Shown: piece by piece, positions 16,926 through 42,725 of the stretch | Layout: every line of letters begins with the position of its first letter | How positions within the stretch are numbered: position 1 is the first letter of the stretch | Assembly: GCA_963783375.1 (NCBI GenBank) | Contig: CAWANH010000029.1 | Coordinates: 608,001-672,000, forward strand | Length of the DNA: 64,000 bases | Reading direction: 5' to 3' | Source of the DNA: Candidatus Eiseniibacteriota bacterium | GTDB lineage: Bacteria > Eisenbacteria > RBG-16-71-46 > JABDJR01 | Program-made: the position numbers and the translations under genes | The notes under the pieces: model-generated | Database searches by the model: none | What the model was told of the DNA's origin: nothing | The model's input: only the letters and a program-made list of their open reading frames with translations

Positions 16926-16954
16926 TTGAGCCGGTTCATGTCTGGTGCTAGTGT
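16926..16954 (+). promoter_or_regulatory. Sigma70-like promoter TTGAGC-17-TAGTGT with extended TG, heading the plus-strand accessory operon
   Basis: Sequence match about 70 nt before ATG 17026. Confidence 0.45.
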
Positions 16955-17025
16955 ATCTGCTCCCGGCCGAGAACTTCGGCGCCCACCGTCATCGTGCCCC
17001 CGAAATCAGACGGAGTACCCGAGCC

Positions 17026-18186: not shown

Positions 18187-19790
18187 ACCGAGTCCGGGGT
18201 TTCTTGTTCCTGGCGGCGGCGCTCACCGCCGCGGGGTGCGCGGTCGCCCCTCATGGCCCGGGGGACGACCTCCTTCGCCACGGGGACTTCGCGGCCGCGA
18301 TACCGGTGATTCAGCAGGCGCTGGTCGCCCAACCCGACAACCCGGTCCTGAACCGGAACCTGGGAATCGCGCTTCTCGAGACCGGAAAACCCGAGGCCGC
18401 GGCCACCGCCCTGGAGAGGGCGCGGTCCCTCGACCCGCGCGATCCGGTCGCCGCCTTCCAGTTGGGACGGGCGGCGGAAGCGGCGGGGAGTTGGGACGCC
18501 GCGGCCCGGGCCTACGGCGACTATCTCGCCCTGGGCGGAAAGCAGGAGTCGGCGGTTCGTGTTCGTCTCAACACCCTCAGCCACCGCCGGGCGGAGGCCG
18601 AGGTGAAGGCGGCCCTGGCCCGGGAGCGGAGCCTCTCCGCCGCCTCGGTCCCCGAAAACACCCTCGCCGTCCCCGACTTCGTGAACGTGGCGGCCAGCGA
18701 CACCCTGGCCCCGCTCTCCCGGGGCCTCTCCGCGGTCCTGGTCACCGATCTCTCCCAGGTGGGGGCGTTCCGGGTCCTGGAGCGCGATCGGCTCCAGGTG
18801 CTCCTGGACGAGCTGAACCTGAGCCATCCGAACCCGGAGGCGTCGACGCCCGCCGCCCCCCTCCACGACCCCTCCACCGCCCTGGGGCTCAAGGAGCGCC
18901 TCGCCGCGCTCCGCAGCGCATCGAGCGGGAAGCCGTATTACTCCGGCCCGGTGGACGATCAGCGGGATGCCGGTCTGGAGGCGGCGGTGCGGGAGTTTCA
19001 GGGGGATCATGGCCTGAAGGCCGACGGCGTTCCCGGACCCCGGACCCTGGCCGCCCTGGCCGGGGCGGTGGGCGATCGCCCCCCCGAGACCCCGGCCAAA
19101 CCCGCCGAGGTCGCGGAGGTGGCCCCCGACACCGCCCCCCGCCTCGGAAAGCTGATCGGAGCGCGGCGGTTCGTCCAGGGGGCCTTCGCTCCCCTCGGCG
19201 CGAGCGCGGTCCGCCTCGATGCGTCGGTGATCGCCACCCACGAAGGAACGCTGACCGCAGCGGGAGATCCGGTCAACGGCCCCCTCCCCCGGGTTCTTCA
19301 CCTGGAGAAGGACCTCCTGGCCGAGATCCTGGCCGCCCTGGGCATCACGCCTACCCCGGCGGAAGAGGATGCGCTGGCCCGGATCCCCACCGAGAACTTC
19401 GACGCCTTCATGGCCTGGTCCCGGGGCCTGGTCTTCCAGGACCAGGGACGCCGGGCCGAGGCGCTGGCCGCCTTCCGGGAGGCGGTCCGGCTCGACCCCG
19501 GCTTCAACGAGGCCCGCGCATCCGAGGAGCTGGCTGCGGTCACTCCCGACGATCAGGACGAGCTCGACCGGGCCGAGCTGGACCGGGCCTTCGCCTCGCC
19601 CCCGGCCGGCGCCACCGATCGCCTGCTCCGAAGCGGGGCCTGGACCGGCCTCGGGCCCGGACCCGACCTGGACCGCTGGGCGGACACCGACCCCACCGTG
19701 ACCGAAACCGAAAAGCTGGCCGAGGGAGGAGGGGACGCCACCGGCACCATCGAGGTCGGGGGCACCCTTCCCGGGAGGAACCGGCAATGA
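18183..19790 (+). CDS. TPR lipoprotein with a CsgG/FlgO-like domain and inserted peptidoglycan-binding domain
   Basis: AAGC lipobox, TPRs, TLAVPDF..VLERDRLQVLLDE..RLGKLIGA, AAVREFQ..HGLKADGVPGPRT. Confidence 0.78.
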   Translation: MNRVRGFLFLAAALTAAGCAVAPHGPGDDLLRHGDFAAAIPVIQQALVAQPDNPVLNRNLGIALLETGKPEAAATALERARSLDPRDPVAAFQLGRAAEAAGSWDAAARAYGDYLALGGKQESAVRVRLNTLSHRRAEAEVKAALARERSLSAASVPENTLAVPDFVNVAASDTLAPLSRGLSAVLVTDLSQVGAFRVLERDRLQVLLDELNLSHPNPEASTPAAPLHDPSTALGLKERLAALRSASSGKPYYSGPVDDQRDAGLEAAVREFQGDHGLKADGVPGPRTLAALAGAVGDRPPETPAKPAEVAEVAPDTAPRLGKLIGARRFVQGAFAPLGASAVRLDASVIATHEGTLTAAGDPVNGPLPRVLHLEKDLLAEILAALGITPTPAEEDALARIPTENFDAFMAWSRGLVFQDQGRRAEALAAFREAVRLDPGFNEARASEELAAVTPDDQDELDRAELDRAFASPPAGATDRLLRSGAWTGLGPGPDLDRWADTDPTVTETEKLAEGGGDATGTIEVGGTLPGRNRQ

Positions 19791-20929
19791 GCCGCCGTCA
19801 CGCGCGCCTCTTCCGATCGGCGTCCGTTCTGGCCCTCGCCCTCATCCCCGCCGCGGCGGCGGCCAGCTCGGGAACGGTGCGCGTCCCCGGGAGCTACCGC
19901 ACCTGGACGGTGAAACAGGACGGGACCGAGACCTCGATCAGCCAGTTCCACCTCCCCCTGGTTGTAACCGCCGGCCTCGGCCGTGGGACCGACCTCGTGG
20001 TCTCGGGTTCCGGGGCCTTCGCCTCGACGGATCCCTCCGGCGCCTCGTCGAATTCCCTGAACGGCTTGACCGACGTCACCGCGCAGCTCTTCATGCGCCT
20101 CGCCGGCGATCGATTCCTGATCCACGCCGGGGCCGGGCTTCCCACCGGGAAGACCGAACTCGACGACCGGGAGATCGTGGTGGCCCGCAACCTGGCCCTT
20201 CCCGTCCTGGGCTTCAGGGCCAAGGACTACGGAGAAGGCTTGAACCTGAGCGCGGGCGGAGCGGTGGCGTTTCCGCTCTCCGGGACCGCGCGGTTCGCGA
20301 TGGGGGCGGGGTTCGTCCATCGCGGGAGCTACACCCTTTTCGCCGGGGGCGGGGACTACCGCCCGGCCCCCGAGGTCTCGGCGACGGCGGGATTGGACCT
20401 CCAGGGCCGGGGAAAGGGGAGCACCGCTCCCCTCCTCCGCCTCGACGCGGTCTACCGTATCTACGGAAACGACGAGCTCGACGGAGAGACGGTCTTCGAG
20501 GAAGGAAACCAACTCGAGCTCCAGGCGGCGGGATCGAGCGGGGGAAGCGGGCTCCGGCTGACCGGCCTCGCCCGCACCGTGCTCAAGGCGGACAACACGG
20601 TGACCGGAGGTCAAGGTCAAACCGTGGAGGCGCTCAAGGCCAGCTCCGGGAACGCGGTGCTCGGCCGGCTCGAAGTCGACCTCCCGGTGGGCACCGCTCT
20701 CCGCGCGGGGATCACCTCGGAGTGGAACCACGTGAGCGGGAGCGACACCCCGGTCTGGAACGGCGATTCCTACGGACTCGGCCCCGTGCTCCGGGCGGCG
20801 CTCGGAGCGCACGCCCGGTTGGAGTTCAACGTCATGCGCCTCGGCGGCACCCTGGACGGCGGCGCGAACCCCGACCTCGACCTCTCCGGCACCTCCATAG
20901 GAGTCACCTTCTCCTGGCGGGCATCATGA
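19787..20929 (+). CDS. Putative outer-membrane beta-barrel protein
   Basis: Signal peptide, amphipathic strands, GLPTGK motif, C-terminal IGVTFSWRAS; ATGA coupling on both sides. Confidence 0.65.
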   Translation: MSRRHARLFRSASVLALALIPAAAAASSGTVRVPGSYRTWTVKQDGTETSISQFHLPLVVTAGLGRGTDLVVSGSGAFASTDPSGASSNSLNGLTDVTAQLFMRLAGDRFLIHAGAGLPTGKTELDDREIVVARNLALPVLGFRAKDYGEGLNLSAGGAVAFPLSGTARFAMGAGFVHRGSYTLFAGGGDYRPAPEVSATAGLDLQGRGKGSTAPLLRLDAVYRIYGNDELDGETVFEEGNQLELQAAGSSGGSGLRLTGLARTVLKADNTVTGGQGQTVEALKASSGNAVLGRLEVDLPVGTALRAGITSEWNHVSGSDTPVWNGDSYGLGPVLRAALGAHARLEFNVMRLGGTLDGGANPDLDLSGTSIGVTFSWRAS

Positions 20930-23900
20930 GGAACGTCATGCAATTCGGAAATCGAATGATTCCGCTTTCCCGGTTCATCGGGGTCCTTTTCGCCGCCGCT
21001 CTCGGCGCCGCGCTCTTTTCCCTGGGCTGCGGGGACCATGCCGCCACCGGGCCCCGCACCGCGGTGCCGCTGAGGGTGCGGGTGGAGTTCCCGGACGGCG
21101 CTTCGGCCAAGGGAGCGGGACTCACCCCGGCCGCGGTCATCGACCAGGTGCGGGCCTTCGCCTGGGAGGTGGTGGACGACACCACCCAGGTGCTGCGCGA
21201 TCAGGCCTCCCAGGACATCGCCCCCACCGACACCTCGTTCAGCCTGGTGCTGACCGTGCCTCCCGCCCCGCTCTACCGGGTGCGGGTGGAGGCCCGGAGC
21301 GGCAACGTGGTCCACTTCGAAGGCGAGGCCCTCGTGGAGGACGTGGGCTCGGGAGAGACCGCGACCATCAGCCTGGTCCTGGTGGATGCGCTCCCCCCCA
21401 CCGCCCCCACCGGCCTCACCGCGACTCTCTCCACCTTGACCAGCGTCGATCTGAGCTGGACGGACAACGCGGAGAACGAGACCCGCTATCGCGTGGAGCG
21501 CCGGATCGGCGCCGAAGGCTCCTTCGCCGAGATAGCGGTCCTGGAGGGCAGCTTCGCCGGAACCGTGACCTATGCCGACAAGAACCTCTCCGAGCGCACT
21601 TCCTACCAGTACCGCGTCCGGGCGCAGGGGGCGGCCGGCTTCTCCGGCTACTCGAACATCGCTTCGGCGCGGACCGGAATCGGCGCCCCCACCGGACTCG
21701 CCGTGGCCCCGCTCACCGATACCTCGCTCCGCATCACCTGGAGCTACTCCTCCGACCCCGGGGGCTTCCAGCTCCAACGCCGGACCGGATCCGGGGCCTG
21801 GGGAACGATGCTCTATCCGGGCGCCTCGGCCCGCGGCTACAACGACGGCGGCCTCCAGCCCAAGACTTCCTACGGCTACCGCCTCCGCGCCTTCGCCGGC
21901 CCCGACACCTCGGTCTGGACGCCGGAGGCGACCGGAAGCACCGAGGACCGCGCCCCGGTCTGCGCTCTCTCCGAGCCCAGCCATGATTTCGGCACTCTGA
22001 CGGTTGGGAACAGCTCCGTGTGGAGCTTCACCATCACCAACACCGGCGGCGGGACTCTGGCCGGAACCGTGGCCCTGGCGAGTTGCGGGAACGGCTTCAG
22101 CCTGACCGACGGCGAGGGACCGTTCAGCCTGACCGCGGGGCAGAGCCGGACGGTGCGCGTCCGGTTCGAACCGACCGTCCCCGGATCCCGCGCCTGCACG
22201 GTGGCCACCGGCCTCGCCTGCACGGTATCGCTCTCCGGGAACGCGGTCACCCTGGGCGCATGCTCGGTGGACCTTCCATCGATCGGGTTCGGAACCCTCG
22301 AGGTCGGTTCCACCGCGGACACGACCTTCGTGATCACCAACACCGGCGGATCGAGCCTCGACGTTCCCCTCGGGGCAAGCGGGGGGGGCTGCCCGGCCTT
22401 CACCCTGGATCCGCCGGCCGGGAACTACAGCCTCGACCCCGGGGCCAGCCTTCCGGTGAAGGTCCACTTCGCGCCCACCCAGGCCGTGACCTACACCTGC
22501 ACGGTCACCGCCGGGAGCGGGTGCTCGGTGGCCTTGAGCGGCGCCGGGCGATTGAGCCCCCTCTGCTCCGTCACCCCCACCACCCTCGACTTCGGCTCCC
22601 GCGAGGCGGGCACCGACAGCCTCCTCTCCTTCCAGATCACCAACGTCGGCGGCGGAACCCTGACCGGGTCGGTGGTCCTGTTCGAGTGCAGCGGCTTCAG
22701 CCTGGAGTCCGGCGGCGGGAACTTCGCCCTGGGGGCGGGGGCGTCGCGGGCGGTGACCGTCCGCTTCTCGCCGGGGCAATCGGGTAGCTACGCCTGCACC
22801 GTGGCCACCGGGACCGACTGCTCGGTGGCCCTCGTGGGCGAGGCGTTCGAGCTTCCGGTCTGCTCGGTGGTCCCGGCCAGCCTGGACTTCGGCACCGTGT
22901 TCACCGACGGGGACAGCGTGCGTAGCGTCACCGTCACCAATCGCGGCGACGGGGTGCTGAGCGGCGCGGCGACCCTGGGCGAGTGCAGTGGGTTCACCCT
23001 GAGCTCGGGGAGCGGCGCGTTCAGCCTGGGAGCGGGCGAGTCGCGGTCGATCGACATCGAGTTCGCCCCCCCCACCGCCGGTCCCTTCGCCTGCCAGCTC
23101 GACCTGGGAACGGACTGCGATCCGGTCGCCCTCACCGGGACCGGGGAACTCCCCCCCGCGTGCACGATCGAGCCCCAGGCCCTGGTGTTCGACACCCTCG
23201 ACGTCGAGACCTCCCAGGTCAAGAGCTTCACCATCACCAACACCGGGGGCGGAACCGTCGAGGGCACGGTGGCCCTGCCCGAGTGCACCGAGTTCACCCT
23301 CGACTCCGGAGCGGGCGGCTTCAGCCTGGGGGCGGGCGAGTCCCACACCGTGAGCGTCCGGTTCAGTCCGCTCATCCCCGGGGGCGTGGCCTGCGAGGTC
23401 ACCACCGGCACCCAGTGCTTCCAGGTCCCGGTCGCCGGCGCAGGACGGCTTCCCCCCTACTGCACCCTCGACACCTACTCCCTCGACTTCGGCGCCCCCC
23501 AGCCCGGGACGCCGGTCCAGCGGAGCTTCACCATCACCAACGACGGGGGCGGGTTCTTGACCGGCTCGGCAACCGAGAGCTGCCCCGACTTCTCGATCGT
23601 CTCCGGCGGGGGTCCGTTCAGCCTGGGGGCCCAGCAGAGCCGCCGGGTCACGGTGGAATACAACAGCACGTCCGCCGCCGGGGGGAGCTGCAGCGTGGAC
23701 CTGGGCACCGACTGCGGCTCGGTGTCGTGCACGGCGGCGGGGGTGCCGGAGTGCTCGGTGAGCCCCGCCACCCTGAACTTCGGCACCATACCCGCCGGGA
23801 CCGTCGCCGATCGTACCCTCACCGTCACCAACAGCGGGGGTGGCGTCCTGAGCGGCTCGGTGAGCGAGAACTGCGCCGAGTTCACGGTGTTCCAGGCGGG

Positions 23901-24413
23901 AGTGGGAGCGCCGTCGGCCCCCGCCTCCCCCGAGGCCAGCGTCCCCTATTCCCTGGCAGCCGGACAGAGCATCGACGTGACCGTCCGGTTCCAGCCCAAG
24001 ACCGGCGGGTCCTACAACTGCACCATCCTCGCCGGGGATCAGTGCATCGGGGTTCAGGCGGTGGGGAACGCCGCGGTGTGCTCGATCTCGCCGGGGACGA
24101 CATCGACATGGGGTACACGTACTACACGGGGGACTCGGCTACCAGCTGGTGACGATCACCAACACCGGGGCGGGCATCCTGGCCGGGGCTACCGACCGAG
24201 AGCTGCCCGAATTTCTCGCTCACCGACTACACCTACGAAAACCCGGTGAGTTCCTTCGCCCTCGGGCCGGGCCAGTCCTACAGCTTCGTGATCTGGTTCA
24301 CCGCCCCCGTCGACTTCGGGACCTATAACTGCACGGTCAGCCTCGGGCCGAACTGCCCGAGCATCGTGTGCACCGTGAACCACTCCTGCCTCGGAAAGCC
24401 GGGGAAGCGATGA
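20926..24413 (+). CDS. Large lipoprotein adhesin-like protein: 2 FN3 domains + 8 Cys-rich ASH (choice-of-anchor D) Ig-like repeats; 3 apparent frameshifts at 24090-24200
   Basis: SLGC lipobox, LSWTDN..YRVRA FN3 motifs, repeats C.V.P..LDFG..TITNTGGG.L.G; the last repeat continues across shifted frames to TGA 24413. Confidence 0.78.
21961..24400 (+). repeat. Eight ~300-bp intragenic tandem repeats encoding ASH/Ig-like domains
   Basis: Recurrent (t/g)atcaccaac..cggcgg and ttcagcctggg nucleotide motifs with a conserved Cys pattern. Confidence 0.8.
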
Positions 24414-26201
24414 GCGCGAACCGAATCCCGGGACCGGACACCCCGCTGGATCTGCTGATCCTGGCCGATCTCGTTCCGGAAGGCGCGGCCGATGCCCCCC
24501 TCCGCGCCCGCCCCCACCGGGTGGACGCGGCGGGCTTCGCCGAGCTGTTGCGGACGACCGCCCCCACCGTGTCCATCGTGACCGGGGACGGGGAGACGAT
24601 CGCGCTCCGGTTCGACGAGCTCCGCGCCTTCCGCCCCGAGGCCCTGGCCGCCGCCCTACCCGGGCTCCGGGGCCTGACCGCGGTCCACCGGATCCTCGAG
24701 GACCTCCACCGCGGGCGGATCGATCTCACCAAGGCCCTGGCCGAGCTGGACGCCCGCGCCGAAACCGTCCCCGGGGTGAAGGCGGTGCGGAAGGCGCTGG
24801 CCGGCGGCGCGTCCCCGGAGGGGAAGGCGTCGCCCGAGCCACCCCCACCCGCGACCCCGGCCCCTCCCCCGGCGGAGGGCGGGCTTTTCGACCTGGTGGA
24901 CGTGGACGCCTCCACCGCCCCCACCGAACCGGAAGCCCCGGCCAAGGCCCTCGACCGGCTGGTTCGCGAGATCGCCGGCGGCGGGGTGGCTCTGAACCGC
25001 GACCGCCTCGGCCGGCTCACCGCCCGCCTGGACGAGGCCTCGGCGCGACGGCCTCCGCGGCGTCCTTCACCACCCCGCGGTGCGAAACCTGGAAGCGGCG
25101 TGGCGCGGGCTCGATTTTCTCCTCCGGCGGATCGACCCGCGCTCCGGGGTTCGCGTTCACGTCCTGGCCGCGCCGGCCGGCGGACGCGTGGAGGCGTTCC
25201 GGGAACTCCTCCTTCCCCTGGCCGCGGAGATCCGCGAGGAGGCCCGAACCGCGGTGGCGCTGGTGGACGCCGAGTTCGGGGGCGGCCCCGACTCCCTGGC
25301 CGAGGCCCGCGAGCTCGCCGCCCTGGCCGAGGAGGCCCGGACCCCGCTCGTCGCCTCCGCCGATCCCCGGCTCCTGGGCCTCGATTCGTGGAAAGCGATC
25401 CAGTCCCTGGGTCCGGTGGACGAGATGCTCCACGACGCCCCGCCCGCCGGCTGGGCCGCCCTCCGGGGCGACCCCGCCGCCCGGTGGCTGACCCTGGCCG
25501 CCAACCCGTACCTTCTCCGCCTCTCCTACGGGGCGGATCTGGACCGGGTGAAGGGGTTCGCCTTCGAGGAAAACCCCGGCCCCGGCGATCCGACCTACCT
25601 CTGGGGACGGCCGGGCTGGATCGTGGTCGCCCTGATCGCCCTCGGCGCGATCCGGGACGGCTGGGGCGCGGCGATCACCGGCCCCGCCGCCGCCCTGGAG
25701 GTGACCGATCTCCCGGTCCGTCCGCTGGCCCTTCGCGGCGGAGACCCGGTCCAGATCCCCCTGGAGATGCTCCTCCCCGAGAACCGCGTGCTGGAGCTCT
25801 CCCGCGCCGGTCTGGCCGCGCTGGCCTGCGCGCGAAACCGCGACCATGCCTTCCTTCCGAGCGCGCCTTCCACCGCGGCGCCCGCACCTCCCACCGCGGC
25901 CTCGGACCGGCGAACCGAGGCGCTCCGGGTGTCGCTGGCCTACCAGATCTTCACCGCGCGGATCACCGCCCTCCTGGATCACCTGCTGCGTTGGATGGGA
26001 CCCACCCAGGGCCCGGAGGAAACCGCGGCCGGGCTCGCGACCGGGCTCCAGACCCTCACCGCAACCGCGGCCGGACCGGAAGTGGAGGTGGCCGGGGCGG
26101 TGGGCGACGGCGGGACGTCCATCGTGCTTCGCATCGTGCCGCGGGGCGAGCCGGTTCGGGGCCTGCCGGTTCTGGAGCTCCGCCTCCCGGTGGAGCGGTG
26201 A
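24410..26201 (+). CDS. TssB-TssC fusion sheath-like protein 1 (~596 aa; one frameshift near 25045)
   Basis: N-terminal LLILADL..LRFDELRAFRPEAL resembles this window's TssB; VLHHPAVRNLEAAWRGL..LLRLSYG..YLWG..DLPV resembles its TssC. Confidence 0.72.
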
Positions 26202-26204
26202 TCG

Positions 26205-26678
26205 GTGAGCCTGGACATCGCCCCCACCCAGATGAACTACTACGACGTCTCCGGGACCACCCTGGAGGAGGCGGCCGGCAATCTGGGCCTGCCCGGAGGC
26301 GAGGACGGGCTCACCGAGTTCGACCTCGGGTACGAGTACGACGGCGTGAGCCGGGGCCTTCCCCAGAACTTCATCCTGCACCTTTCGCTGGCCATCACCA
26401 TGCCCCGCTGGTTGGAACGGGACGCCGCCACCACGCCCGAGCAGGCCGAGTGGGACCGGTTCTACGCCGCGCTCCTGGCCCACGAACGGGAGCACGCCTC
26501 GCGGACCCGGGCGGAGGCGCGCCGGGTGCACGCCCGCCTGGCCCGCACCCGGGCCGCCGACCTCGAGGAGCGCTTCCAGGCCGGCAAGCGGGTGATCCAG
26601 CGGGAGAACGACGCGTTCGACGACGCCACCCATCACGGCCAGGTGCCGGCGCCCGGAACGATCATCACGATCCCCTGA
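26205..26678 (+). CDS. DUF922-like HExxH putative zinc protease without signal peptide
   Basis: YYDVSGTT, ITMPRW, WDRFYAALLAHEREH, FDDATHHG. Confidence 0.72.
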   Translation: MSLDIAPTQMNYYDVSGTTLEEAAGNLGLPGGEDGLTEFDLGYEYDGVSRGLPQNFILHLSLAITMPRWLERDAATTPEQAEWDRFYAALLAHEREHASRTRAEARRVHARLARTRAADLEERFQAGKRVIQRENDAFDDATHHGQVPAPGTIITIP

Positions 26679-26709
26679 ACGGGGCCGGCGACCGGCCGGA
26701 GGAACGATC

Positions 26710-28045
26710 ATGAAACCCTTGCCCTGGAAGATCACCGTGTTCTCCGACCTGGGGGGACGGTCCGACCCGCCGGTTCGCGTCCGCGCCGGGGACCTGGACG
26801 AACGCCTGCACGCGATGGGGGTCTCGGCGGCGATCCCGGTGCCCGGAAAAGGAACCGCGACCCTCTCCCCCGAATCCCTCGACGATCTCTCCCCCCGCGC
26901 GCTCCGGGACTTCCTCGGGGTTTCCGGAGAAGCCCTCGACGCCGTCCTCCACGCTCCCGCCTTTCAGGGGCTGGAAGCGGCCTGGCGTGGCCTGGCGCGC
27001 CTCACCGCCGAGGCGGGGGACGAGGTGTCGGTCGAGGTGGCGTCGGCGCCTCGGGGATCGCTGGCCGAGCGTCTGCGGGAGACCGTGCTCGGCCCGGGGC
27101 TCTCCACCGACGCCCCCCCCACCCTGCTGGTCCTGGACTACGACTTCACCCACAAGCCGGCCGACCTGGCTCTGCTCCGGGAGATCGCGGGAATGGCCAA
27201 GGTGCTCCAGGCCCCGGCGGTGGCCGCGGCGAGCGCCGGGCTTCTTCGATCTCCGCCACCTGGCCCACGTCCTCACCCTCCCCGACATGGTGGGGCGTTT
27301 GAACGACCCCGCCCACGCCGGCTGGACCGCGTTCCAGGCCACCGAGGAGGCGCGCTGGCTGGCCCTGACCCTGAACCGCTACCTGGAGCGCGCCCCCTAT
27401 CAGGGCGAGGACCACACCGAGGCCGCCACGGTGGCGAAACCGGAGACCTACCTCTGGGCGCGGGGCGGCTGGCTGGTGGCCACGGCCCTGGCCCGGAGCG
27501 CCCGGGCCCACGGCCACGCCCTGGACATGTCGGGGGGCCGGGGGGGCCGGTTCGACGGGCTTCCGGTCCGGGATTACCCGGTCTCGGCCAACGAAACCGC
27601 ATCCTTGGCCACCGAGGTTCCGATTCCCGACATGAAATCCCAGGAGCTTTCCCGCGCCGCCTTCACCCCGCTGGTGGGCCAGCTTCGCGGCGGGGCGGTG
27701 GTGGTCCCCATCGCGGTGTCGGTGTCGCGGCTCGGCCCGGGACGACTCACCGTGGAGGGGACCCTGGCCTACCAGATCACCGCCGGCCGGCTGGCGCGGT
27801 TCTGCGGCAATCTTCTCGACGCCGCCCCCGGCGGCTCGCCCGACGACGTTGCCGCTTTCTTCAGGGAATCCCTGAGCGCCTTCCTGGGCCCGGTGGGCGG
27901 CGAGGACGCGGTCACCGTGACCCCCACCACCGCCGAAGGCCCGGACGGCCCCCGCCCCATGGCGGAGATCCAGGTGCGCTCCGCGGTGCCCCTGGAGGGA
28001 AAGCCCATCTCGTTCACCTTCCTGCTCCCCCTGGCGCAGGACTGA
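26710..28045 (+). CDS. TssB-TssC fusion sheath-like protein 2 (~444 aa; one frameshift near 27240)
   Basis: LPWKITVFSDL..SLDDLSP (TssB-like) joined to VLHAPAFQGLEAAWRGL..DYDF..EEARW..YLW..ATEV (TssC-like). Confidence 0.72.
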
Positions 28046-28055
28046 CGGAGGAACC

Positions 28056-28592
28056 ATGAGCCTCGACCGCGCTTCCCAAGACGATGCTTCTTCCACCCAC
28101 GAGTTCCACGCGGTGGAGCGGGGCGACTCGGTGGAGATCGGGGCCGGGCTGGTGGTGGACGCGCCTCCCGCCGGGGTTCCCGACGCTCCCGCCCGCCTCC
28201 GCCTGGCCTCCGGGCGCCGGGCCGAGTTCGCCCGGGAGGGGGCGGACGACCTCCTCACCGTCTCCGCCGCCGACGGTCGGGTGGAGCTCCGGGTCCGCTT
28301 CACCGAGGCCGGTCCGGTCCTCTCCTTCGAGGCCGCGGGCCTGAAGCTGGCCAGCGTGGGGGAGGTGGCGGTGGAGTGCGACCGCTTCCGGGTGGAGGCG
28401 CGGGAGGCGGTGGAACTCCGTTCGGGGGGATCGATCGAATCCACGGCCGAGGGCGACGCGGTGACGCGCGCGGGAGGCACCGCCCGGGTCGAGGGACGCG
28501 CGGTGGAGGTGCGCTCCCGGCGGGGAGACGTGGACCTCAAGGCCAACGACGACGTCCGGCTCCGCGGGGAGCGGATCAAGCTCAACTGCTGA
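28056..28592 (+). CDS. Hypothetical beta-strand-rich protein resembling a VgrG/gp5 C-terminal spike segment
   Basis: GGAGG RBS; short alternating strands ending DVDLKANDDVRLRGERIKLNC, like the VgrG tail LTLSGTPVKAN. Confidence 0.55.
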   Translation: MSLDRASQDDASSTHEFHAVERGDSVEIGAGLVVDAPPAGVPDAPARLRLASGRRAEFAREGADDLLTVSAADGRVELRVRFTEAGPVLSFEAAGLKLASVGEVAVECDRFRVEAREAVELRSGGSIESTAEGDAVTRAGGTARVEGRAVEVRSRRGDVDLKANDDVRLRGERIKLNC

Positions 28593-28600
28593 GGCCGCGA

Positions 28601-29634
28601 ATGGACTTCGAGAACACCTCCGCCTTTCCCCGCCGAGCTGGTCCGGAGCGCCCTCTCCACCGACGACCGCGAGCCCATGCTGGCGGTGGTGGTGGTGAAG
28701 GTCACCTACATGGTGGACGCGGCGGGGACCGTCGAGCCGGCCCCGGAGCAGGATCCCATCCGGCTCGAGGCGGAGGAGACCGAGCTGGGGGTGCTCCCGC
28801 CCGACGCCGCGCCGGTCAAGCCCGGCTTCGACGTGCTGGTCCTGGGCCGGGCCCTCGCTCCGGAGGGAAAGCCGGTGCCGCAGATGACTGGTGCGGCTGG
28901 AGGTGGGTGAGGCGGCGCGCGAGCTGGCGGTGTTCGGCGAGCGGCGCTGGGTGAAACGTCCCCCGGAAGGAAAACCGAAGAAGCGGAAGAAGAACGAGCC
29001 GGAGCCGCCGCCGGTCTTCGCGGCCTCGCTCCCCGAGCCCTTCATCGCGCTTCCCCTGACCTACGCCAACGCCTACGGCGGGAAGGCCAAGGTCGGGGTC
29101 TACGAGGCTCCCTTCGCCTACAACCTGGAGGGAAAGGGATTCTGCATGGAGGCCGACGCCGCCGAGGGACTGCCCCTTCCCAACGTGGAGGATCCCCGCG
29201 CGCTGATCCGGAGCTGGGAGGACCAGCCCCGTCCGGCCGGGTTCGCTCCCCTCCCCCTCGGCACCCTCTTCACCGTGGAGCGCGGGGTCACCCACGACGC
29301 GGAGACGAACGAGCAGACCGTGCACCCGGAGGTGTTCCAGAACGCCCATCCCGACCTGGTCTTTCCGGAGGTTCCGCCGGGGACCCCGATCGTCCTCACC
29401 GGCATGACCCCGGAGGGACGCCTCGCCTTCGCCCTCCCCGACCTCCGGGCCTCGGTGACCGTGCGCCTGGGCGAGACGGAATATCATCCCGAGGGGAAGG
29501 TGGACACCCTGACCATCCACCCCGAGGAAGGGCGCATCGTGCTCACCCACCGCACCCCGTTCAAGTACCGGGTGGTGCCGGAGCAGATCCGGACCACCGT
29601 GCTCGCCGTGGAGAGCCCGGGGGGCGCATCATGA
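28601..29634 (+). CDS. DUF2169 T6SS accessory chaperone 1 (frameshifts near 28630 and 28890)
   Basis: VVVVKVTY, KPGFDVLVLG, VFGERRW, PL.YANAYGG, LPNVEDP, FQNAHPD. Confidence 0.75.
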
Positions 29635-30521
29635 GCATGCCCACCTTCGCCATCCACACCGTGAACGTCCGGTTGGCCTTTCTCTATGCCACCCACCTGG
29701 ATATCCCCCCGCCCTACACCGCGCCCCCCGCCCCCCTTCCCTTCGTAGAGGTGCCCCACACCTGCTTCTGGGGACCGGGGGCGGCCATGGCCGCGCCCAA
29801 CAAGGTGCTCACCGACAACTTCACCCCCGCTCAGATCGGTCACGACTGCGGGATCGGGGTGATCCACGTGGACATCCCGGTGGGGCCCCTGTGCCCGGTG
29901 GCCATCGCCACCTCCTCCTGCAAGGTGGTGTTCGCCGCCGGCACCGTGCTGTCGGACGGGAAGCCCACCGCCGGGCACTTCCCGCCCCTCATCAACCTGC
30001 TTCAGTGCTTCGTCCCGGTGCCGCTTCCCATCGGGGGCTTCCTCCTGGTGATGAACACGGTGTTCGTGGGGATGACCCTGCTGGACATCTTCATGGGGAT
30101 CGTCCGGATCGCCATCGCCATCGTCATCGCCCTCATCTTCAACAAGCTGGGGAGCTCGGCGGGCAAGATGGGGCAGGCCTGGCAGTGGGTGGGGAAACTG
30201 GGAGAACGGTTCGGGACCAGCTGGGCGGGGGCGATGGGGAACGCCCTCCTCGGCACCCTGGCCGAGGACATGGTGAAGGGCCTCGTCCTGGGTCCGATCA
30301 TGGAGGGCAAGATCGCCCTCCCCTACCAGATCGCCGAGCTGGATCTCACCAACGGCCAGGTCAAGGTGTTCTACTGGAACGTGGGCGGTCCGAACTGGAC
30401 GCCGGCCCAGAATCGATCCGTGGGCGGTCTCCTGGACAGCGCCCAGCAACCTACCGCGGTGCCGAGCGGATCGTCCCCCGCCCAGCAGGCCACCAGCGGC
30501 GTTCCCGTCCTGGGAGGATGA
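29631..30521 (+). CDS. Putative PAAR-like spike-tip protein with C-terminal transmembrane/Gly-rich region
   Basis: Pro-rich IPPPY..PLPF, GHDCG..H, SS.KVVF..TV..DGKP, C.VPVPLP..NTVFVG, then hydrophobic helices; lies between two DUF2169 genes. Confidence 0.55.
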   Translation: MSMPTFAIHTVNVRLAFLYATHLDIPPPYTAPPAPLPFVEVPHTCFWGPGAAMAAPNKVLTDNFTPAQIGHDCGIGVIHVDIPVGPLCPVAIATSSCKVVFAAGTVLSDGKPTAGHFPPLINLLQCFVPVPLPIGGFLLVMNTVFVGMTLLDIFMGIVRIAIAIVIALIFNKLGSSAGKMGQAWQWVGKLGERFGTSWAGAMGNALLGTLAEDMVKGLVLGPIMEGKIALPYQIAELDLTNGQVKVFYWNVGGPNWTPAQNRSVGGLLDSAQQPTAVPSGSSPAQQATSGVPVLGG

Positions 30522-30522
30522 C

Positions 30523-31758: not shown

Positions 31759-31788
31759 CCGCGCCGGGGCCTGGGATCCCCGGCGGCT

Positions 31789-33902: not shown

Positions 33903-36614
33903 CTACGCCTCCTTCGTCGCCGTTCCCCCGAACTCCAGGGCAAAGCCTTCGTCGTCACCCACCGTGACCCGCACCCGGTCGGGAAGCGGACCTTCCGACA
34001 TCCGTTCCAGGAGCGCGGTGGAGAGCATGGGGAGCAGGGTCTGCTGGATGATGTGATCGATGTTCCGGGCCCCGGTTTCCACCTCGGTGCACCGGGCGGC
34101 GATCACATCCTCCACCCGTGGATCGGTCTCCAGGAGCATGCGGTGGCTGTCCCAGAGCCGGTTCACCACCTTGCCCATCTTGAGCCGGATGATCTCCTTC
34201 AGGAAGTCGCCGGCCAGGGGGTAGAAGGGTACGATCTCCATCCGGGCCAACAGCGCCGGTTTGAAGTGCTGGGAGAGGACGGGCCGGATGGCCCCGGTCA
34301 CCTCCTCCAGGGTGGGAGGCACCGGGCCCCCGCACATCTGCATGATCACGTCCGAGGCCAGGTTGCTGGTCAGGAAGACCACGGTGTTCTTGAAGTCGAT
34401 GACCCGGCCTTCCCCGTCGGCCAGCATTCCCTTGTCGAAGACCTGGTAGAAGAGGTTCAGCACCTCGGGGTCGGCCTTCTCCACCTCGTCCAGGAGCACC
34501 ACCGAGTAGGGGCGCTGCCGGACCGCCTCGGTGAGCACCCCCCCCTCGCCGTAACCCACGTAGCCGGGAGGCGACCCGATGAGGCGGCTCACGGTGTGCT
34601 TCTCCTGGAACTCGGACATGTTGATGGTGGTGAGGAACCGCTCCCCGCCGAACATGAGGTCGGCCACCGAGAGCGCAGCCTCGGTCTTTCCCACCCCGCT
34701 CGGACCCACGAACAGGAACACCCCGATGGGGGTGCCGGGGTTCTTGAGTCCGGCATGGGACGCCCGGAGCCCCCGGTCCACCGCCTCGATGGCGTGGTCC
34801 TGCCCCTTGATCCGCTCCGCCATGCGGCGATGGAAGTCGAGAACGCTCGCGGCCTGGTCCCGCACCATCTTCCCGGCCGGGATTCCGGTCCAGTCGCTGA
34901 TCACCGCCGCGATGAGCGCGGCGTCGACCTCGACCGGAATGAGGGGGTTCTTGCCCTGGAGCTTACCGAGCCCGGCCAGGGCCTCGTCCAGCTCCCGCCG
35001 GGTCACCTTGGCCGGGGCGGGCGCGGCTTCGCCCTCTCCGGGCTTTCCCGCCGCCGGCTTGGCGCTCGCGTCCTTGCCGTCCCCGGTCTTGGCCGGAACG
35101 TCCTTGCCGAGATAGATCCGGCGGAGGTCGAGGAGCCGGTTCACCGCCTCCCGCTCCTTCTCCCAACGCGCGGTGAGCTCGGTGCGGCTGGTGTCGAGCG
35201 CGGCCAGCTCCTTCTCCAGCGCCCCGGCCCGGTCCTTCTTCGGGTCCCGTCCCAGCTCCTCGTCCTCGGCCAGCGCCTTCCGCTCCCGATCCAGGGTCTG
35301 GATCCGACGCTCCACCGCGTCCAGGGCCTCGGGCTTCGTGGCCTGGGCGATCTTCACCCGCGCCGCCGCGGTGTCGAGGAGGTCCACCGCCTTGTCCGGG
35401 AGCTGGCGCCCCGAGATGTAGCGGCTGGAAAGGCGGGCCGCCGCCTCCACCCCCTCATCGGTGATCCGGACTCCGTGGGCCTCCTCGTACTTCGAGCGAA
35501 GGCCCCGCATGATGAGGATGGCGTCCTCTTCCGTCGGCTCATCCAGCTTCACCAACTGGAAACGGCGGGCCAGGGCGGGGTCCTTCTCGAAGTACTTCTT
35601 GTACTCGGACCAGGTGGTGGCGGCGATGGTGCGGAGCTCGCCCCGGGCCAGGGCGGGCTTCAGGAGGTTGGCGGCGTCGCCTCCGCCCGCCGAGCCGCCG
35701 GCCCCGATCAGGGTGTGGGCCTCGTCGATGAAGGTCACCACCGGGGTCGGCGATCCCTTGACCTCGCTGATCACCGCCTTCAACCGGTTCTCGAACTCCC
35801 CCTTCACCCCCGCGCCGGCCTGGAGGAGCCCCAGGTCCAGGGTCAGGAGCCGCACGTTCTTGAGGAGGTCGGGCACGTCCCCCTCGACGATGCGGAGCGC
35901 CAGCCCCTCCACCACCGCCGTCTTCCCCACCCCCGGCTCCCCCACCACGATGGGGTTGTTCTTCCGGCGCCGGGCCAGGATGTCGATCATCTGCCGGATC
36001 TCCCGGTCGCGTCCGAACACCGGGTCGATCTCCCCCTTCCGCGCCCGCTCGGTGAAGTCGATCATGAACCGCCCGATGGCCGTTTCGTCGGCGGGACGGC
36101 TCGGACCCTGGGTCCGGGGCTCACCCTCGCCCGGGGCCTCGTGTTCGCTGCTCGAGGCGGTGATGCGGTAGAGATCGCGCTTGAGCTCGTCCTTCCGGAT
36201 CGGATCCAGGTAGCCGGAGAGATCCTCGTCGGTGAAGCGGTCGGGCTTCTGCACCAGGACCAGGAAGAGACCGCCGGAGCGGACCCGGTCCTCGCCGTAG
36301 TCCACCGAGGTCGCGAGCCAGGCGTCCTGGATCCAGCCCAGGAGGAGGGGCGAGAAGACCGGGCGGCCGGTGTTCCCCGCCCGCACCCGATCCAGGACGT
36401 GCTGCACCGTCTTCAGGAGCCCCGCGGGGTTGATCTCGAAGTGGCGGAGGATCGCCTGGACGTCCCCGGAGGGATCCTCCAGGAATTGCATGAGCAGGTG
36501 CTCCGCCGTGACCTCGTAGTGGCCGCGGGAGACGCAGTTTCCCGCCGCGGCCTCCAGGGCCCGCCGGGTGGGACCGTTCAGCTTGTTGATAAGGCCTTTG
36601 ATGTCCACGTCCAT
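33903..36614 (-). CDS. tssH: T6SS AAA+ ATPase ClpV
   Basis: GEPGVGKT and GPSGVGKT Walker A motifs, EYKKYFEKDPAL, TGARNIDH. Confidence 0.97.
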   Translation of the reverse strand: MDVDIKGLINKLNGPTRRALEAAAGNCVSRGHYEVTAEHLLMQFLEDPSGDVQAILRHFEINPAGLLKTVQHVLDRVRAGNTGRPVFSPLLLGWIQDAWLATSVDYGEDRVRSGGLFLVLVQKPDRFTDEDLSGYLDPIRKDELKRDLYRITASSSEHEAPGEGEPRTQGPSRPADETAIGRFMIDFTERARKGEIDPVFGRDREIRQMIDILARRRKNNPIVVGEPGVGKTAVVEGLALRIVEGDVPDLLKNVRLLTLDLGLLQAGAGVKGEFENRLKAVISEVKGSPTPVVTFIDEAHTLIGAGGSAGGGDAANLLKPALARGELRTIAATTWSEYKKYFEKDPALARRFQLVKLDEPTEEDAILIMRGLRSKYEEAHGVRITDEGVEAAARLSSRYISGRQLPDKAVDLLDTAAARVKIAQATKPEALDAVERRIQTLDRERKALAEDEELGRDPKKDRAGALEKELAALDTSRTELTARWEKEREAVNRLLDLRRIYLGKDVPAKTGDGKDASAKPAAGKPGEGEAAPAPAKVTRRELDEALAGLGKLQGKNPLIPVEVDAALIAAVISDWTGIPAGKMVRDQAASVLDFHRRMAERIKGQDHAIEAVDRGLRASHAGLKNPGTPIGVFLFVGPSGVGKTEAALSVADLMFGGERFLTTINMSEFQEKHTVSRLIGSPPGYVGYGEGGVLTEAVRQRPYSVVLLDEVEKADPEVLNLFYQVFDKGMLADGEGRVIDFKNTVVFLTSNLASDVIMQMCGGPVPPTLEEVTGAIRPVLSQHFKPALLARMEIVPFYPLAGDFLKEIIRLKMGKVVNRLWDSHRMLLETDPRVEDVIAARCTEVETGARNIDHIIQQTLLPMLSTALLERMSEGPLPDRVRVTVGDDEGFALEFGGTATKEA

Positions 36615-39469: not shown

Positions 39470-39886
39470 CTATCCCTTGACGTCGACTTCGCCGGAGGCG
39501 TCGATCCGGGTCTCGAACCAGACCGACGCCCGCTCATCGGCGGTGGCCAGCTCGGCGGTGATCTCGAAGCGCAACGCCAGGGGGTCGTCGTCGGTCTCCA
39601 CGTACTTCACGTTGACCCGGCGGAGCCGCGGTTCGTAGGTTTCGATGGTCTCCTTGATCGCCCGCCGCATCCCCGTCACCCCCTCCGGGAAGCTGGCGGT
39701 CAGGTCCACCATGTCCGGAATGCCGTAACCGGGCTGGGCGGGGGCGATCCCACGACGGGAATTGAGGAGGTTCCGCAGGTTGGAAAGCACCGACTCCGCC
39801 AGGCGGCTGGTGTTCTCGTGGATGGTCCGGGAACCCTCGGCCCCCGGATCGCGCAGACGCTCGAACAGGCTTCGATCCCGCGGCAC
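39470..39886 (-). CDS. tssE: T6SS baseplate TssE (gp25-like)
   Basis: SLFERL, NLRNLLNSR, YGIPD, YEPRL. Confidence 0.93.
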   Translation of the reverse strand: MPRDRSLFERLRDPGAEGSRTIHENTSRLAESVLSNLRNLLNSRRGIAPAQPGYGIPDMVDLTASFPEGVTGMRRAIKETIETYEPRLRRVNVKYVETDDDPLALRFEITAELATADERASVWFETRIDASGEVDVKG

Positions 39887-39922
39887 GGACCCTCCCGGCG
39901 AGGTTCAGGGGACGGCAAGGAC

Positions 39923-39955
39923 GGCCGGGAGGGCGCGATCCGCGTCCTCCCGGCC
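39923..39955 (-). terminator. GC-rich hairpin between hcp and tssE (stabiliser or partial terminator)
   Basis: ggccgggagggcgcg-atc-cgcgtcctcccggcc inverted repeat; no U tract. Confidence 0.45.
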
Positions 39956-39981
39956 CTGCCCGATCGGTTCCCGACGGAGGC

Positions 39982-40473
39982 CTAGGCCTGTTCCCGCCAG
40001 CTATCCTGATGCATCGACCCGCTGGGCTCGAAGGTCCAGGAGATGGTCTCGAACATGACCGAGATCTCCTCCAGCGGAGGATGGGTGGAGGAGGCCGGAT
40101 CGATGCTGTCCGGGCTTACCGCGGTGAAGCTCGAAATCCGGCCGCCCTTGACCTCGATGGTGTAGAACTGCTCGGTGGTGCCGTCCCCGTCCGGGTTGGG
40201 CCGGTAGAACTTGAAGGTCCCCTCGATGACCTCGTTGTTGACCAGAGCCCTGTAGAGAAGCGGGGTGGCCTTGTCGATCCGCTTACGGAACACGATGGGT
40301 TCGTAGGACCGGCGGCCGGTTGACATGCCGCTCCCCGCCTCGCGTCCGGTGCGGACGGCGGACTGGAAGAACACGCACTCGATCGAGTCCTCGCGGTCCA
40401 TGGACGTGATCGAGCTGTCGCCCGGGACGTCGGCCCCGTTCGCCTTGAGCCACAAGTGGACATTCTGCGCCAT
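39982..40473 (-). CDS. hcp: T6SS tube protein Hcp
   Basis: KRIDKATPLLY.AL..NE, FYRPNP, E.IS..F..I.W. Confidence 0.95.
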   Translation of the reverse strand: MAQNVHLWLKANGADVPGDSSITSMDREDSIECVFFQSAVRTGREAGSGMSTGRRSYEPIVFRKRIDKATPLLYRALVNNEVIEGTFKFYRPNPDGDGTTEQFYTIEVKGGRISSFTAVSPDSIDPASSTHPPLEEISVMFETISWTFEPSGSMHQDSWREQA

Positions 40474-40589: not shown

Positions 40590-42077
40590 CTACTTCTTGT
40601 CCAGCTTGCCCACCAGGGACAGGGTGAAGAAGGCGCCCATGTACTTGAAGTGGGGGCGCACCTTCAACCCGACCTTGTACCAGCCGGGATCCCCTTCCAC
40701 GTCGTCCACCACGACCTCCGCCTCCCGCAACGGCCGGCGCCCCTTGGTGGCGGCGCTGGCGTTGTCCATCTCCGACACGTACTGCCGGATCCACAAATTG
40801 AGCTCACGGTTCAGATCGGACTTCTCCTTCCAGCTTCCGATGTTCTCCCGCTGGATGACCTTGATGTAGTGGGCCAGCCGGTTGACGATGAACATGTAGG
40901 GAAGCTGGGTCCCGAGCTTGTAGTTGGCCTCGGCGTCCTTCCCCTCCTTGCTGTTCCCGAAGAACTTCGGCTTCTGGCAGGAGTTCGCGGAGAAGAAGCA
41001 GGCGTTGTCGCTCCCCTTCCGCATGGTGAGGGGAATGAAGCCCTCCTCGGCCAGCTCGAACTCCCGACGCTCGGAGATCAGCACCTCGGTGGGGATCTTC
41101 TGCTCGGTGGTGCCCATCGCCTTGTAGGTGTGCACCGGAAGGTCCTCCACCGCGCCCCCGCTCTGGGGACCGATGATGTTGGGGCACCACCGGTACTTGG
41201 CGAAGCTGTCGGTCAGCCGGGAGGCGAAGGCGAAGACCGCGTTCCCCCACAGGTACTTGTCGTGGTTGCCCGCGACCTGCTCGTCGTAGTTGAACTCCTT
41301 GACCGGCACCGTCTCCTCGCCATAGGGGAGCCGCAGAAGGAACCGCGGCATGACCAACCCGACGCTCCGGGCGTCCTCCGACTCGCGGAAGGAGTTCCAT
41401 TTCGCGTAGGTCGGCGACTCGAAGATGGAGTGCATGTCCTTCAGGTTCGGGAGCTGGGTGATGTCGTCCACCCCGAAGAACTTGGGGCTGGCCGCGGCGA
41501 TGAACGGGGCGTGGGACATCGAGGCCACGCTGGCCGCGTACTGCAGCAGCTTCATGTCCTGGGGATGCGCCGAGAACTCGTAGTTGGCGATCATGGCCCC
41601 GATGGGCTCACCGCCGAACTGTCCGTACTCCGCGGTGTAGACCTGCTTGTAGAGGCCCGACTTCACCACCTCGGGGGAGTCCTCGAAGTCGTTCAGGAGA
41701 TCGTCCTTGGAGACGTTGAGGATCTGGATCTTCGTGTTCTCCCGGAAGTCGGTCCGGTCCACCAGCATCTTGAGGCCGCGCCAGGTGGATTCCACCTTCT
41801 GGACCTCGGGATGGTGGAGCACCTCGTCGATCTGGGAGCTCATCTTCTTGTCCAGCTCGGAGATGATCCCGTTGATCACCGACTGGTGGACCTTGGGGGT
41901 GGTGACGCCGGGGCGGACCAGTTCCTTGATGAAGGCCTCCAGCCCCCGCTTCGCCACCGCGTAGCTCTCGTCGCTGGGTTTCACCTTCGTGGTCAGGACG
42001 ATTTCATCGAGCAGCGAGCCGCCGGCCTCCTCGGCCTGACCGGACGCGGCCTGCGCTTGGTTTTCCATTTCAGACAT
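40590..42077 (-). CDS. tssC: T6SS contractile sheath large subunit (VipB)
   Basis: ESTWRGL, EYGQFGGEP, PRFLLRLPYG, YLWGNA, RLAHYIKV. Confidence 0.98.
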   Translation of the reverse strand: MSEMENQAQAASGQAEEAGGSLLDEIVLTTKVKPSDESYAVAKRGLEAFIKELVRPGVTTPKVHQSVINGIISELDKKMSSQIDEVLHHPEVQKVESTWRGLKMLVDRTDFRENTKIQILNVSKDDLLNDFEDSPEVVKSGLYKQVYTAEYGQFGGEPIGAMIANYEFSAHPQDMKLLQYAASVASMSHAPFIAAASPKFFGVDDITQLPNLKDMHSIFESPTYAKWNSFRESEDARSVGLVMPRFLLRLPYGEETVPVKEFNYDEQVAGNHDKYLWGNAVFAFASRLTDSFAKYRWCPNIIGPQSGGAVEDLPVHTYKAMGTTEQKIPTEVLISERREFELAEEGFIPLTMRKGSDNACFFSANSCQKPKFFGNSKEGKDAEANYKLGTQLPYMFIVNRLAHYIKVIQRENIGSWKEKSDLNRELNLWIRQYVSEMDNASAATKGRRPLREAEVVVDDVEGDPGWYKVGLKVRPHFKYMGAFFTLSLVGKLDKK

Positions 42078-42164
42078 TGTCGTTCCTCCCGGTCACGCCG
42101 GCCGGACCTTCGGCCGCGGCGACCCATTCCAGGGATTTCATCCTCCGGTAGCCTGTTCCGGCGG

Positions 42165-42725
42165 CTAGGCGCCGCTCTCGGGACTCGGGGGCTCTCCGCC
42201 GCCCTCCGGCGGCGCCGCCGCTTCCGGAGCCGGCGCACCGCCCTCGCCCAGGCCCAGCTCCTTCATGATCTTCTCCCGTTGGGTCGGATCCTGGAGCAGG
42301 GCCTCGATCTTCTTCCTGAACGCGGGGACGTTGGCCAGCGGACCCTTGAGCGCGGTGAGAGCCTCGCGGAGATCGAGGAGCTTGTTCAGCTCCGGGACCT
42401 GCCGCGCCACCGCCGCGGGCTCGAAGTCCTTGAGGGTCTTGAACTGGAGCTTCGCGCTCAGCTCCTCTCCCTCGCCGCCGGTCAGGGTATTGGGGACGTT
42501 GATGGCCACGCCGAGCTTCTGCTGCCCCATCACGTCGTTGAAATTGTCCTTGTCCACCGAGAGCGCCTTGCGTTCTTCCAGCGCCGTCTCGTCCTCCCGG
42601 TTGGTGAAATCTCCCAGGACCATGAGCTTGAGCGGAAGCTCGATCTCCGCCTGGGCCCCACCGGTGGCGGGCTTGTAGACGATGTTCACTCGCTCCTTGG
42701 GAGCTACCGATCCTTCCTTGGCCAT
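42165..42725 (-). CDS. tssB: T6SS contractile sheath small subunit (VipA)
   Basis: APKERVNIVY, ELPLKLMVLGDF, DFEPAAVARQVPEL. Confidence 0.98.
   Translation of the reverse strand: MAKEGSVAPKERVNIVYKPATGGAQAEIELPLKLMVLGDFTNREDETALEERKALSVDKDNFNDVMGQQKLGVAINVPNTLTGGEGEELSAKLQFKTLKDFEPAAVARQVPELNKLLDLREALTALKGPLANVPAFRKKIEALLQDPTQREKIMKELGLGEGGAPAPEAAAPPEGGGEPPSPESGA

Follow-up and report, generated by a model that had tools for sequence, protein, structure and literature searches.

A single-chain TssB-TssC sheath paralog in a T6SS locus of the Eisenbacteria: a putative low-copy ring of the sheath

Described sheath proteins and their variants

T6SS sheaths are treated as homopolymers of a single TssBC protomer, and in Vibrio the N-terminal linker of TssB is required for contraction. 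In the solved structures, each protomer hooks onto the ring on its baseplate side through the N-terminal strand of TssB and the C-terminal strand of TssC (PMC5807055; PMC5813253). Vibrio VipA with a lengthened linker co-assembles and blocks contraction in a dominant manner (PMC5797969), and such non-contractile subunits are connected to the previous ring by the VipB linker only (PMC5813253). The composition of the cap at the sheath's distal end is described as unclear (PMC5813253).

A natural TssB-TssC fusion, TssCL, has been described in roseobacters, where it accompanies the normal tssB and tssC. It is 1,684 aa long, with two VipA domains and one VipB domain. Identity to the canonical counterparts is 31% for the VipB domain and 26% for the shorter VipA domain, and TssCL was reported from the Alphaproteobacteria only (PMC9515649). 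It was the only natural fusion of this kind in the literature searched, outside of which lay most subscription papers, and the available sections of a 2026 review of T6SS accessory factors mention none (PMC13584744). Agrobacterium possesses a non-redundant extra TssC paralog in its one T6SS, the pair being TssC40 and TssC41, and TssC40 does not stabilize TssB (PMC3702570). In the PVC sheath, three single-fold paralogs that differ by their outer domain, Pvc2, Pvc3 and Pvc4, occupy set layers. Handshakes link these layers, and contraction involves the sheath as a whole; the particles are extracellular and are described as working without ClpV (PMC12546770).

The gene considered here, F1, was found in a window of 64,000 nucleotides, the whole stretch of DNA that was analyzed, from a genome whose close relatives are Candidatus Eisenbacteria. 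F1 shares its fold and domain order with canonical TssB/TssC (VipA/VipB; PDB 3J9G, 5MXN, 5URW, 5N8N, 9N4V), and the profile of its family covers TssB from approximately residue 25 and TssC from the first helix to the last strand. Unlike the canonical proteins, F1 is one chain, lacks the N-terminal linker of TssB, has a remodeled inner domain and is only ~25% identical to them. It is sheath-protomer-like and stands outside the canonical contractile class. Like TssCL, F1 is a TssB-TssC fusion next to the canonical pair, but its 596 aa and one VipA match set it apart from the 1,684 aa and two VipA domains given in the description of TssCL (PMC9515649). Like TssC40/TssC41, it is an extra sheath paralog; the Agrobacterium paralogs, however, are described as unfused to TssB (PMC3702570). 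Second-TssC genes at two further loci (L038 and L116) fall inside the canonical TssC clade, whereas F1 falls outside it. As in PVC, three sheath paralogs (TssBC, F1 and a second fusion, F2) accompany one Hcp and one TssE, although layering is here an analogy drawn from the genes alone. Unlike the PVC sheaths, which the model of an F1 homolog matches only at E ~1e-3 in Foldseek, F1 is derived from TssBC. A further comparison is with the engineered VipA-N2 to VipA-N7 proteins, which contact the previous ring by the C-terminal linker only, co-assemble and block contraction. Their lengthened linker still fills its slot (PMC5797969; PMC5813253), while F1 is a natural protein that has none.

The F1 gene and its locus

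The window carries a full T6SS locus on the minus strand (tssJ, K, L, M, tagF, tssA, B, C, hcp, tssE, F, G, clpV and vgrG). Canonical tssC and tssB lie at 40590..42725, tssE and hcp at 39470..40473, and clpV, which encodes the sheath-recycling ATPase, at 33903..36611. A run of plus-strand genes that includes F1 meets these genes head-on. F1 (24410..26201, plus strand) extends from an ATG at 24410 to a TGA at 26201, and reading a four-base step at 25046 as X gives 596 residues. In the frame-corrected protein, the N-terminal part matches Pfam VipA (PF05591) with 30.5 bits against a cut-off of 24 (residues 11-101, model positions 26-125), and the C-terminal part matches Pfam VipB (PF05943) with 127 bits, also above the cut-off. 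The fusion claimed in the preliminary description is thereby confirmed. Pfam VipB_2 gives no match to the inner domain, which is strongly diverged, and F1 scores below the cut-offs of NCBIfam TIGR03355 (146.3 vs 271.5 bits) and TIGR03358 (24.7 vs 97.25 bits). Identities of 24-27% to the TssC of the locus, ~26% to its TssB and 29-35% to F2 agree with the strong divergence from all of these that had been noted.

The TssB-like half of F1 (24440..24802) comprises beta2, beta3 and the helices. It is followed by a Pro/Ala linker, SPEPPPPATPAPPP (residues 141-154; 24830..24871), which is modeled with low confidence, and by the motif GGLFDLVDV (24878..24904), which is conserved in the F1 clade at the site of the N-terminal ClpV-binding helix of TssC. 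The TssC-like middle domain (domain 2) occupies 25050..25907. The diverged inner domain (domain 1; 25908..26198) consists of two helices, two strands and a C-terminal arm strand past a conserved RGLP, and the strings IVLRIVP and PVLELRL are found at the C-terminus. All of these features are on the plus strand. The linker had been pointed out earlier but is not special: the Pro/Ala tail of the locus's own TssB aligns to it, so the linker is the natural TssB-TssC junction, equivalent to the C-terminal tail of TssB, and a new insertion is ruled out.

The single frameshift recognized earlier near 25045 was located at 25040..25050 (plus strand), where F1 has one extra base relative to its relatives. 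This base is missing from two related genomes and from a 93%-identical contig of a public run that covers 24734-25234, each being one base shorter at 25045; in F2, a second run contig is shorter by one base at 27235. Homologs at 93, 71, 59 and 50% identity read open across the position of the break, which rules out that they are split genes, and neither half of F1 contains an in-frame stop. Based on these comparisons, the extra base is very probably an assembly error. There is a slight chance instead that the break is real and that the window's F1 is a decaying pseudogene in a plus-strand accessory operon that is being lost in this strain. Non-triplet indels relative to related genomes occur at 24097, 24134, 24185, 25045, 27235, 28595 and 28889, and these seven are denser than those in the rest of the window; moreover, the contigs of the near-identical run X1 leave the break uncovered. 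Against decay, besides the absence of stops, the N-terminal part of F1 has a dN/dS of 0.37 against the closest genome, isolated non-triplet indels are also present at 36826, 55221 and 58278, and further long-contig assemblies (P0006, G051, G015) show comparable indels at different positions. Whichever way the break falls, the F1 family is intact in relatives. The cluster at 24097-28889 itself reflects either local assembly error or early decay.

Structure of F1

Through a profile built from 125 full-length fusions, TssB (residues 20-183; E 4e-36) and TssC (residues 9-488; E 3e-122) of the window align along F1 from end to end, in the order TssB then TssC. The AlphaFold model of an intact homolog that is 71% identical to F1 (P0002) has a pLDDT of 92.5 and a pTM of 0.90, and contains the middle, outer and inner domains. 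Its nine best Foldseek matches are all T6SS TssC chains (E 3e-19 to 9e-13; TMt 0.68-0.81), with PVC proteins matched only at E ~1e-3.

The TssB-like N-terminus that had been reported is upheld by the VipA match, but this half is incomplete: it starts ~19 residues later than TssB, and the N-terminal strand is gone. Specifically, F1 has 11 residues ahead of beta2 compared with 30 in canonical TssB, and the number is 4-11 in all 33 F1-clade sequences, while 79 of the 92 other long fusions measured have at least 16. Profile matches to solved TssB chains start at residues 24-32 in nine of ten chains. As judged from sequence, the F1 clade lacks the N-terminal linker strand of TssB.

Similarly, the TssC-like body had been called complete. 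The fold and the C-terminal strands are indeed complete, but part of the conserved TssC segment SGLYK..EYGQFGGEP is gone and the inner domain is diverged. F1 keeps the outer domain (domain 3). It also keeps the C-terminal arm strand of TssC, which aligns to the last strand of TssC and corresponds to strand 582-587 of the P0002 model, and both the arm and the RGLP turn are conserved. For unassembled sheath monomers, folding of the C-terminal strand in cis is described as normal (PMC6088184). The inner-domain residues that are invariant in canonical TssC (R400, H403, Y404, K406, R410, I413, G414 and W429) are replaced in F1, with the exception of R400, which the copy in the window still has. The counterpart of the tube-attachment helix, assigned by inference from diffocin and pyocin, is hydrophobic and rich in small residues. 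Because the invariant residues are replaced and this helix is remodeled, a normal contact between F1 and Hcp is doubtful. A complex prediction that paired an armless inner domain of TssC (372-477) with the inner domain of an F1 homolog (486-592) scored 0.00 with the fold of the partner uncertain, which counts neither for nor against their pairing.

Where TssC has its ClpV-binding helix, the F1 clade has a conserved LFD(L/M)VDV motif, found in 33 of 33 sequences by a broad pattern and in 26 by a strict one. This region is unstructured in the P0002 monomer model. The motif resembles the EAEC TssC1 peptide ASLFEKINL, which binds ClpV1 (PMC5048182), and by this comparison of motifs it is a putative ClpV tag.

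The partner fusion F2

Three bases past the stop of F1 begins a DUF922 gene with an HEREH motif (26205..26678, plus strand), which separates F1 from F2 (26710..28045, plus strand). F2 is broken by one extra base near 27235. This second fusion lacks the N-terminal linker and the entire outer domain (domain 3) that bears the ClpV-tag-like motif in F1, and the motif is present in none of the 13 F2 sequences. Without domain 3, F2 would escape ClpV. The inner domain is kept. A model of F2 matches T6SS sheaths with Z scores of 26-28 and the pyocin sheath 3j9r with a Z of 20.0 (rmsd 3.7, 303 residues aligned), and its alignment with single-chain sheaths starts only at approximately residue 20 of those proteins.

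The genome (G000; 97% complete) encodes one Hcp, one TssE and one VgrG, the tssE and hcp of the window being its sole copies, and no phage-type sheath was found in it. There is thus no second machine for F1 and F2, and at this completeness membership of F1 in a second injection system is ruled out. F1 would work with the canonical machine or not at all.

Distribution and evolution

A search of 1.8 billion representatives returned 186 matches at E < 1e-30, and the best 150 of these are mostly fusions of 550-650 residues. Fusion loci come from the Myxococcota, KSB1, Planctomycetota, Acidobacteriota, Verrucomicrobiota, Rhodothermota and Proteobacteria. Their fusion genes are annotated as plain TssC/ImpC, a label that hides a family comprising more than 100 clusters at 50% identity. 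A FastTree tree was built from 267 middle-domain (domain 2) sequences, midpoint-rooted and re-read by clade because its automatic labels were partly wrong. It resolves canonical TssC, the short fusions and the long fusions as separate groups. F1 (36 rows, support 1.0) lies within the last of these, and F2 (12 rows, 0.996) forms a branch of its own. As the two clades are separate and not sisters, a recent duplication is ruled out. By their placement in this tree, F1 and F2 are distinct old clades, and F1 is part of a large family of accessory fusions that spans several phyla. The inner domain and the C-terminal arm are kept in F1, F2 and more than 100 other long fusions. Of five genomes tested, one from a planctomycete and one from an acidobacterium carry the same trio on a single contig: tssB/tssC, a long fusion and a gene of the F2 type.

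Other fusions differ from this pattern. A widespread short class of ~450-510 aa keeps the N-terminal strand and domain 3 and ends before the inner domain. Its loci include L037, L039, L040, L045 and L051-L053, and tssF was present in all five carrier genomes tested. Since this class cannot build a sheath without the inner domain, the fusion family does not need to polymerize. In three Marinospirillum/Oceanospirillum loci (L098, L113, L117), tssB, tssC and hcp are followed further on by a fusion and then directly by a second hcp, an arrangement reminiscent of paired minor sheath and tube proteins. In addition, two TssB-TssC fusions, that of locus L086 and the protein P0147, are placed within the clade of canonical TssC. 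The former occupies the normal position before hcp and the latter keeps the N-terminal strand of TssB, which suggests that they are independent fusions and may be the main sheath.

Within the phylum, a TssF match was found in 57 of 206 genomes, 55 of them convincing. Sheath-like matches occur in 53 of the 206, every one among these 55, and in none of the 149 genomes that have no TssF match. The 55 were divided by TssF score into 38 window-like genomes and 17 of another type, an ad hoc grouping in which two fragmented genomes (G011 and G096) are less certain. With F1 and F2 profiles that were built partly from the counted genomes, and among kin that are not independent, F2 was detected in none of the 17 and in 35 of the 38, of which 34 matched at E < 1e-60 and one had the gene in pieces. 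F1 was detected in 17 of the 206 (16 at E < 1e-130, one contig-end fragment at 90% identity). Every F1 genome also has F2 and canonical tssC. The co-occurrence in related genomes bears out the claim of three sheath variants in one locus, since tssBC, F1 and F2 are separately conserved and occur together. However, F1 is dispensable in this type of T6SS, since 18 of the 35 F2-bearing genomes gave no match to it. Eight of the 17 genomes with the other TssF type carry a short fusion that ends before the inner domain. The gene order, with the fusions transcribed toward vgrG and clpV, is kept in the loci compared. In one genome (G054), a degenerate sheath-like ORF (L131, 3965-4633) directly upstream of the F2 ortholog is possibly an eroded F1.

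The dN/dS of F1 is 0.20-0.68 in six comparisons, which indicates purifying selection, while F1 evolves 6-12 times faster than TssC (dN 0.25 vs 0.028 and 0.42 vs 0.070). New here are the linker-less F1 clade, its strict pairing with an F2 that lacks domain 3, and the recurring set of three protomers.

Possible roles of F1

Two fusions beside the canonical pair had been taken to suggest specialized positions in a heteromeric sheath. The conserved trio, the single tube and baseplate and the complementary domain losses fit this proposal. However, the missing TssB linker and remodeled tube-facing helix of F1 fit a soluble regulator about equally, and the arrangement is not unique to this locus but belongs to a widespread family of accessory fusions. 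The reading preferred here, held tentatively, is that F1 may be a low-copy, non-propagating ring of the cell's one T6SS sheath. Its retention in relatives beside F2 and the normal pair points to a rare end-ring or brake subunit. F1 would dock on the previous ring through its C-terminal strand alone, as the subunits of Vibrio VipA-N3 do. With no linker to pull and an altered tube-facing helix, it would form a terminating or braking layer. Because it is one-armed, F1, if incorporated, would be expected to stop the contraction wave, which would suit a low-copy end layer rather than the trunk. It would be placed at an end of the sheath, the distal end being likelier than the first ring, and ClpV would be able to recycle it through the exposed LFDLVDV helix.

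A number of properties count against such an end ring. A normal contact with Hcp is doubtful given the remodeled inner domain and tube-attachment helix, F1 changes 6-12 times faster than TssC, and it is dispensable, with no match in 18 of 35 F2 genomes. Moreover, it lies in an oppositely transcribed accessory operon away from tssBC, and the related short class without an inner domain cannot build a sheath. The main rival explanation, which is rather unlikely, is that F1 is a soluble, self-capped mimic of the protomer that acts outside the sheath as a regulator, either by binding ClpV through the exposed helix or by binding TssA or free TssB/TssC. Fast evolution with loss of the conserved inner-domain residues, a place in an accessory operon, the lack of F1 in half of the genomes with F2 and the occurrence of the short class in other T6SS types would all suit a regulator, as would the ClpV-tag-like motif in 33 of 33 F1 sequences (26 strict) that is similar to the EAEC TssC1 peptide (PMC5048182). 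A decoy, however, would need neither the inner domain nor the C-terminal arm, yet F1, F2 and more than 100 long fusions keep both. In addition, F2, the more universal partner, has the inner domain but no ClpV-tag-like motif (0 of 13). It is improbable that F1, with or without F2, assembles into a separate polymer or into another sheath that at times replaces TssBC on the same Hcp tube. As complete single-chain protomers of three and two domains, F1 and F2 resemble the pyocin and PVC sheath proteins, but both lack the N-terminal linker that contractile sheaths need. The genome also holds no second tube, spike or baseplate, and the fusions were never found without canonical T6SS genes.

If F1 does form a ring of the sheath, the T6SS class found in the Eisenbacteria, Planctomycetota and Acidobacteriota could have a heteromeric sheath, in which a TssBC trunk is combined with one-armed F1 and F2 rings as terminator, brake or initiator; this broader proposal is possible but doubtful. 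F1 would then be a ClpV-recyclable ring and F2 a ClpV-blind one, so that three protomers with complementary deletions would share one sheath, and the engineered non-contractile VipA mutants would have an equivalent in nature. Naturally linker-less protomers and others without the ClpV domain or the inner domain form a conserved set and provide ready-made tests of how contraction starts and stops and how sheaths are recycled.

Neighboring genes

A scan of 23800-32200 for promoters and terminators found none. The DUF922 gene also adjoins F1 in five other loci (L021, L022, L023, L026 and L136), and one is found near short fusions in two acidobacterial loci (L092 and L103). Upstream of F1, the plus-strand genes at 16945-24390 encode CsgG-like, TPR/peptidoglycan-binding, beta-barrel and long Ig-repeat/Fn3 proteins, which are possibly a surface-contact module tied to the T6SS of the window. 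An Ig-repeat gene is also located near the fusions in L021-L023, L031, L033, L035 and L124-L126. Downstream of F2, the plus-strand genes at 28056-31758 comprise a DUF2345/DUF3540-like gene, two DUF2169 genes and a gene for a 296-aa protein. The latter has weak PAAR-like atlas leads only (0.81-0.84), and its best matches are unnamed myxobacterial clusters. Together, these genes are a probable spike-tip and effector-loading set.
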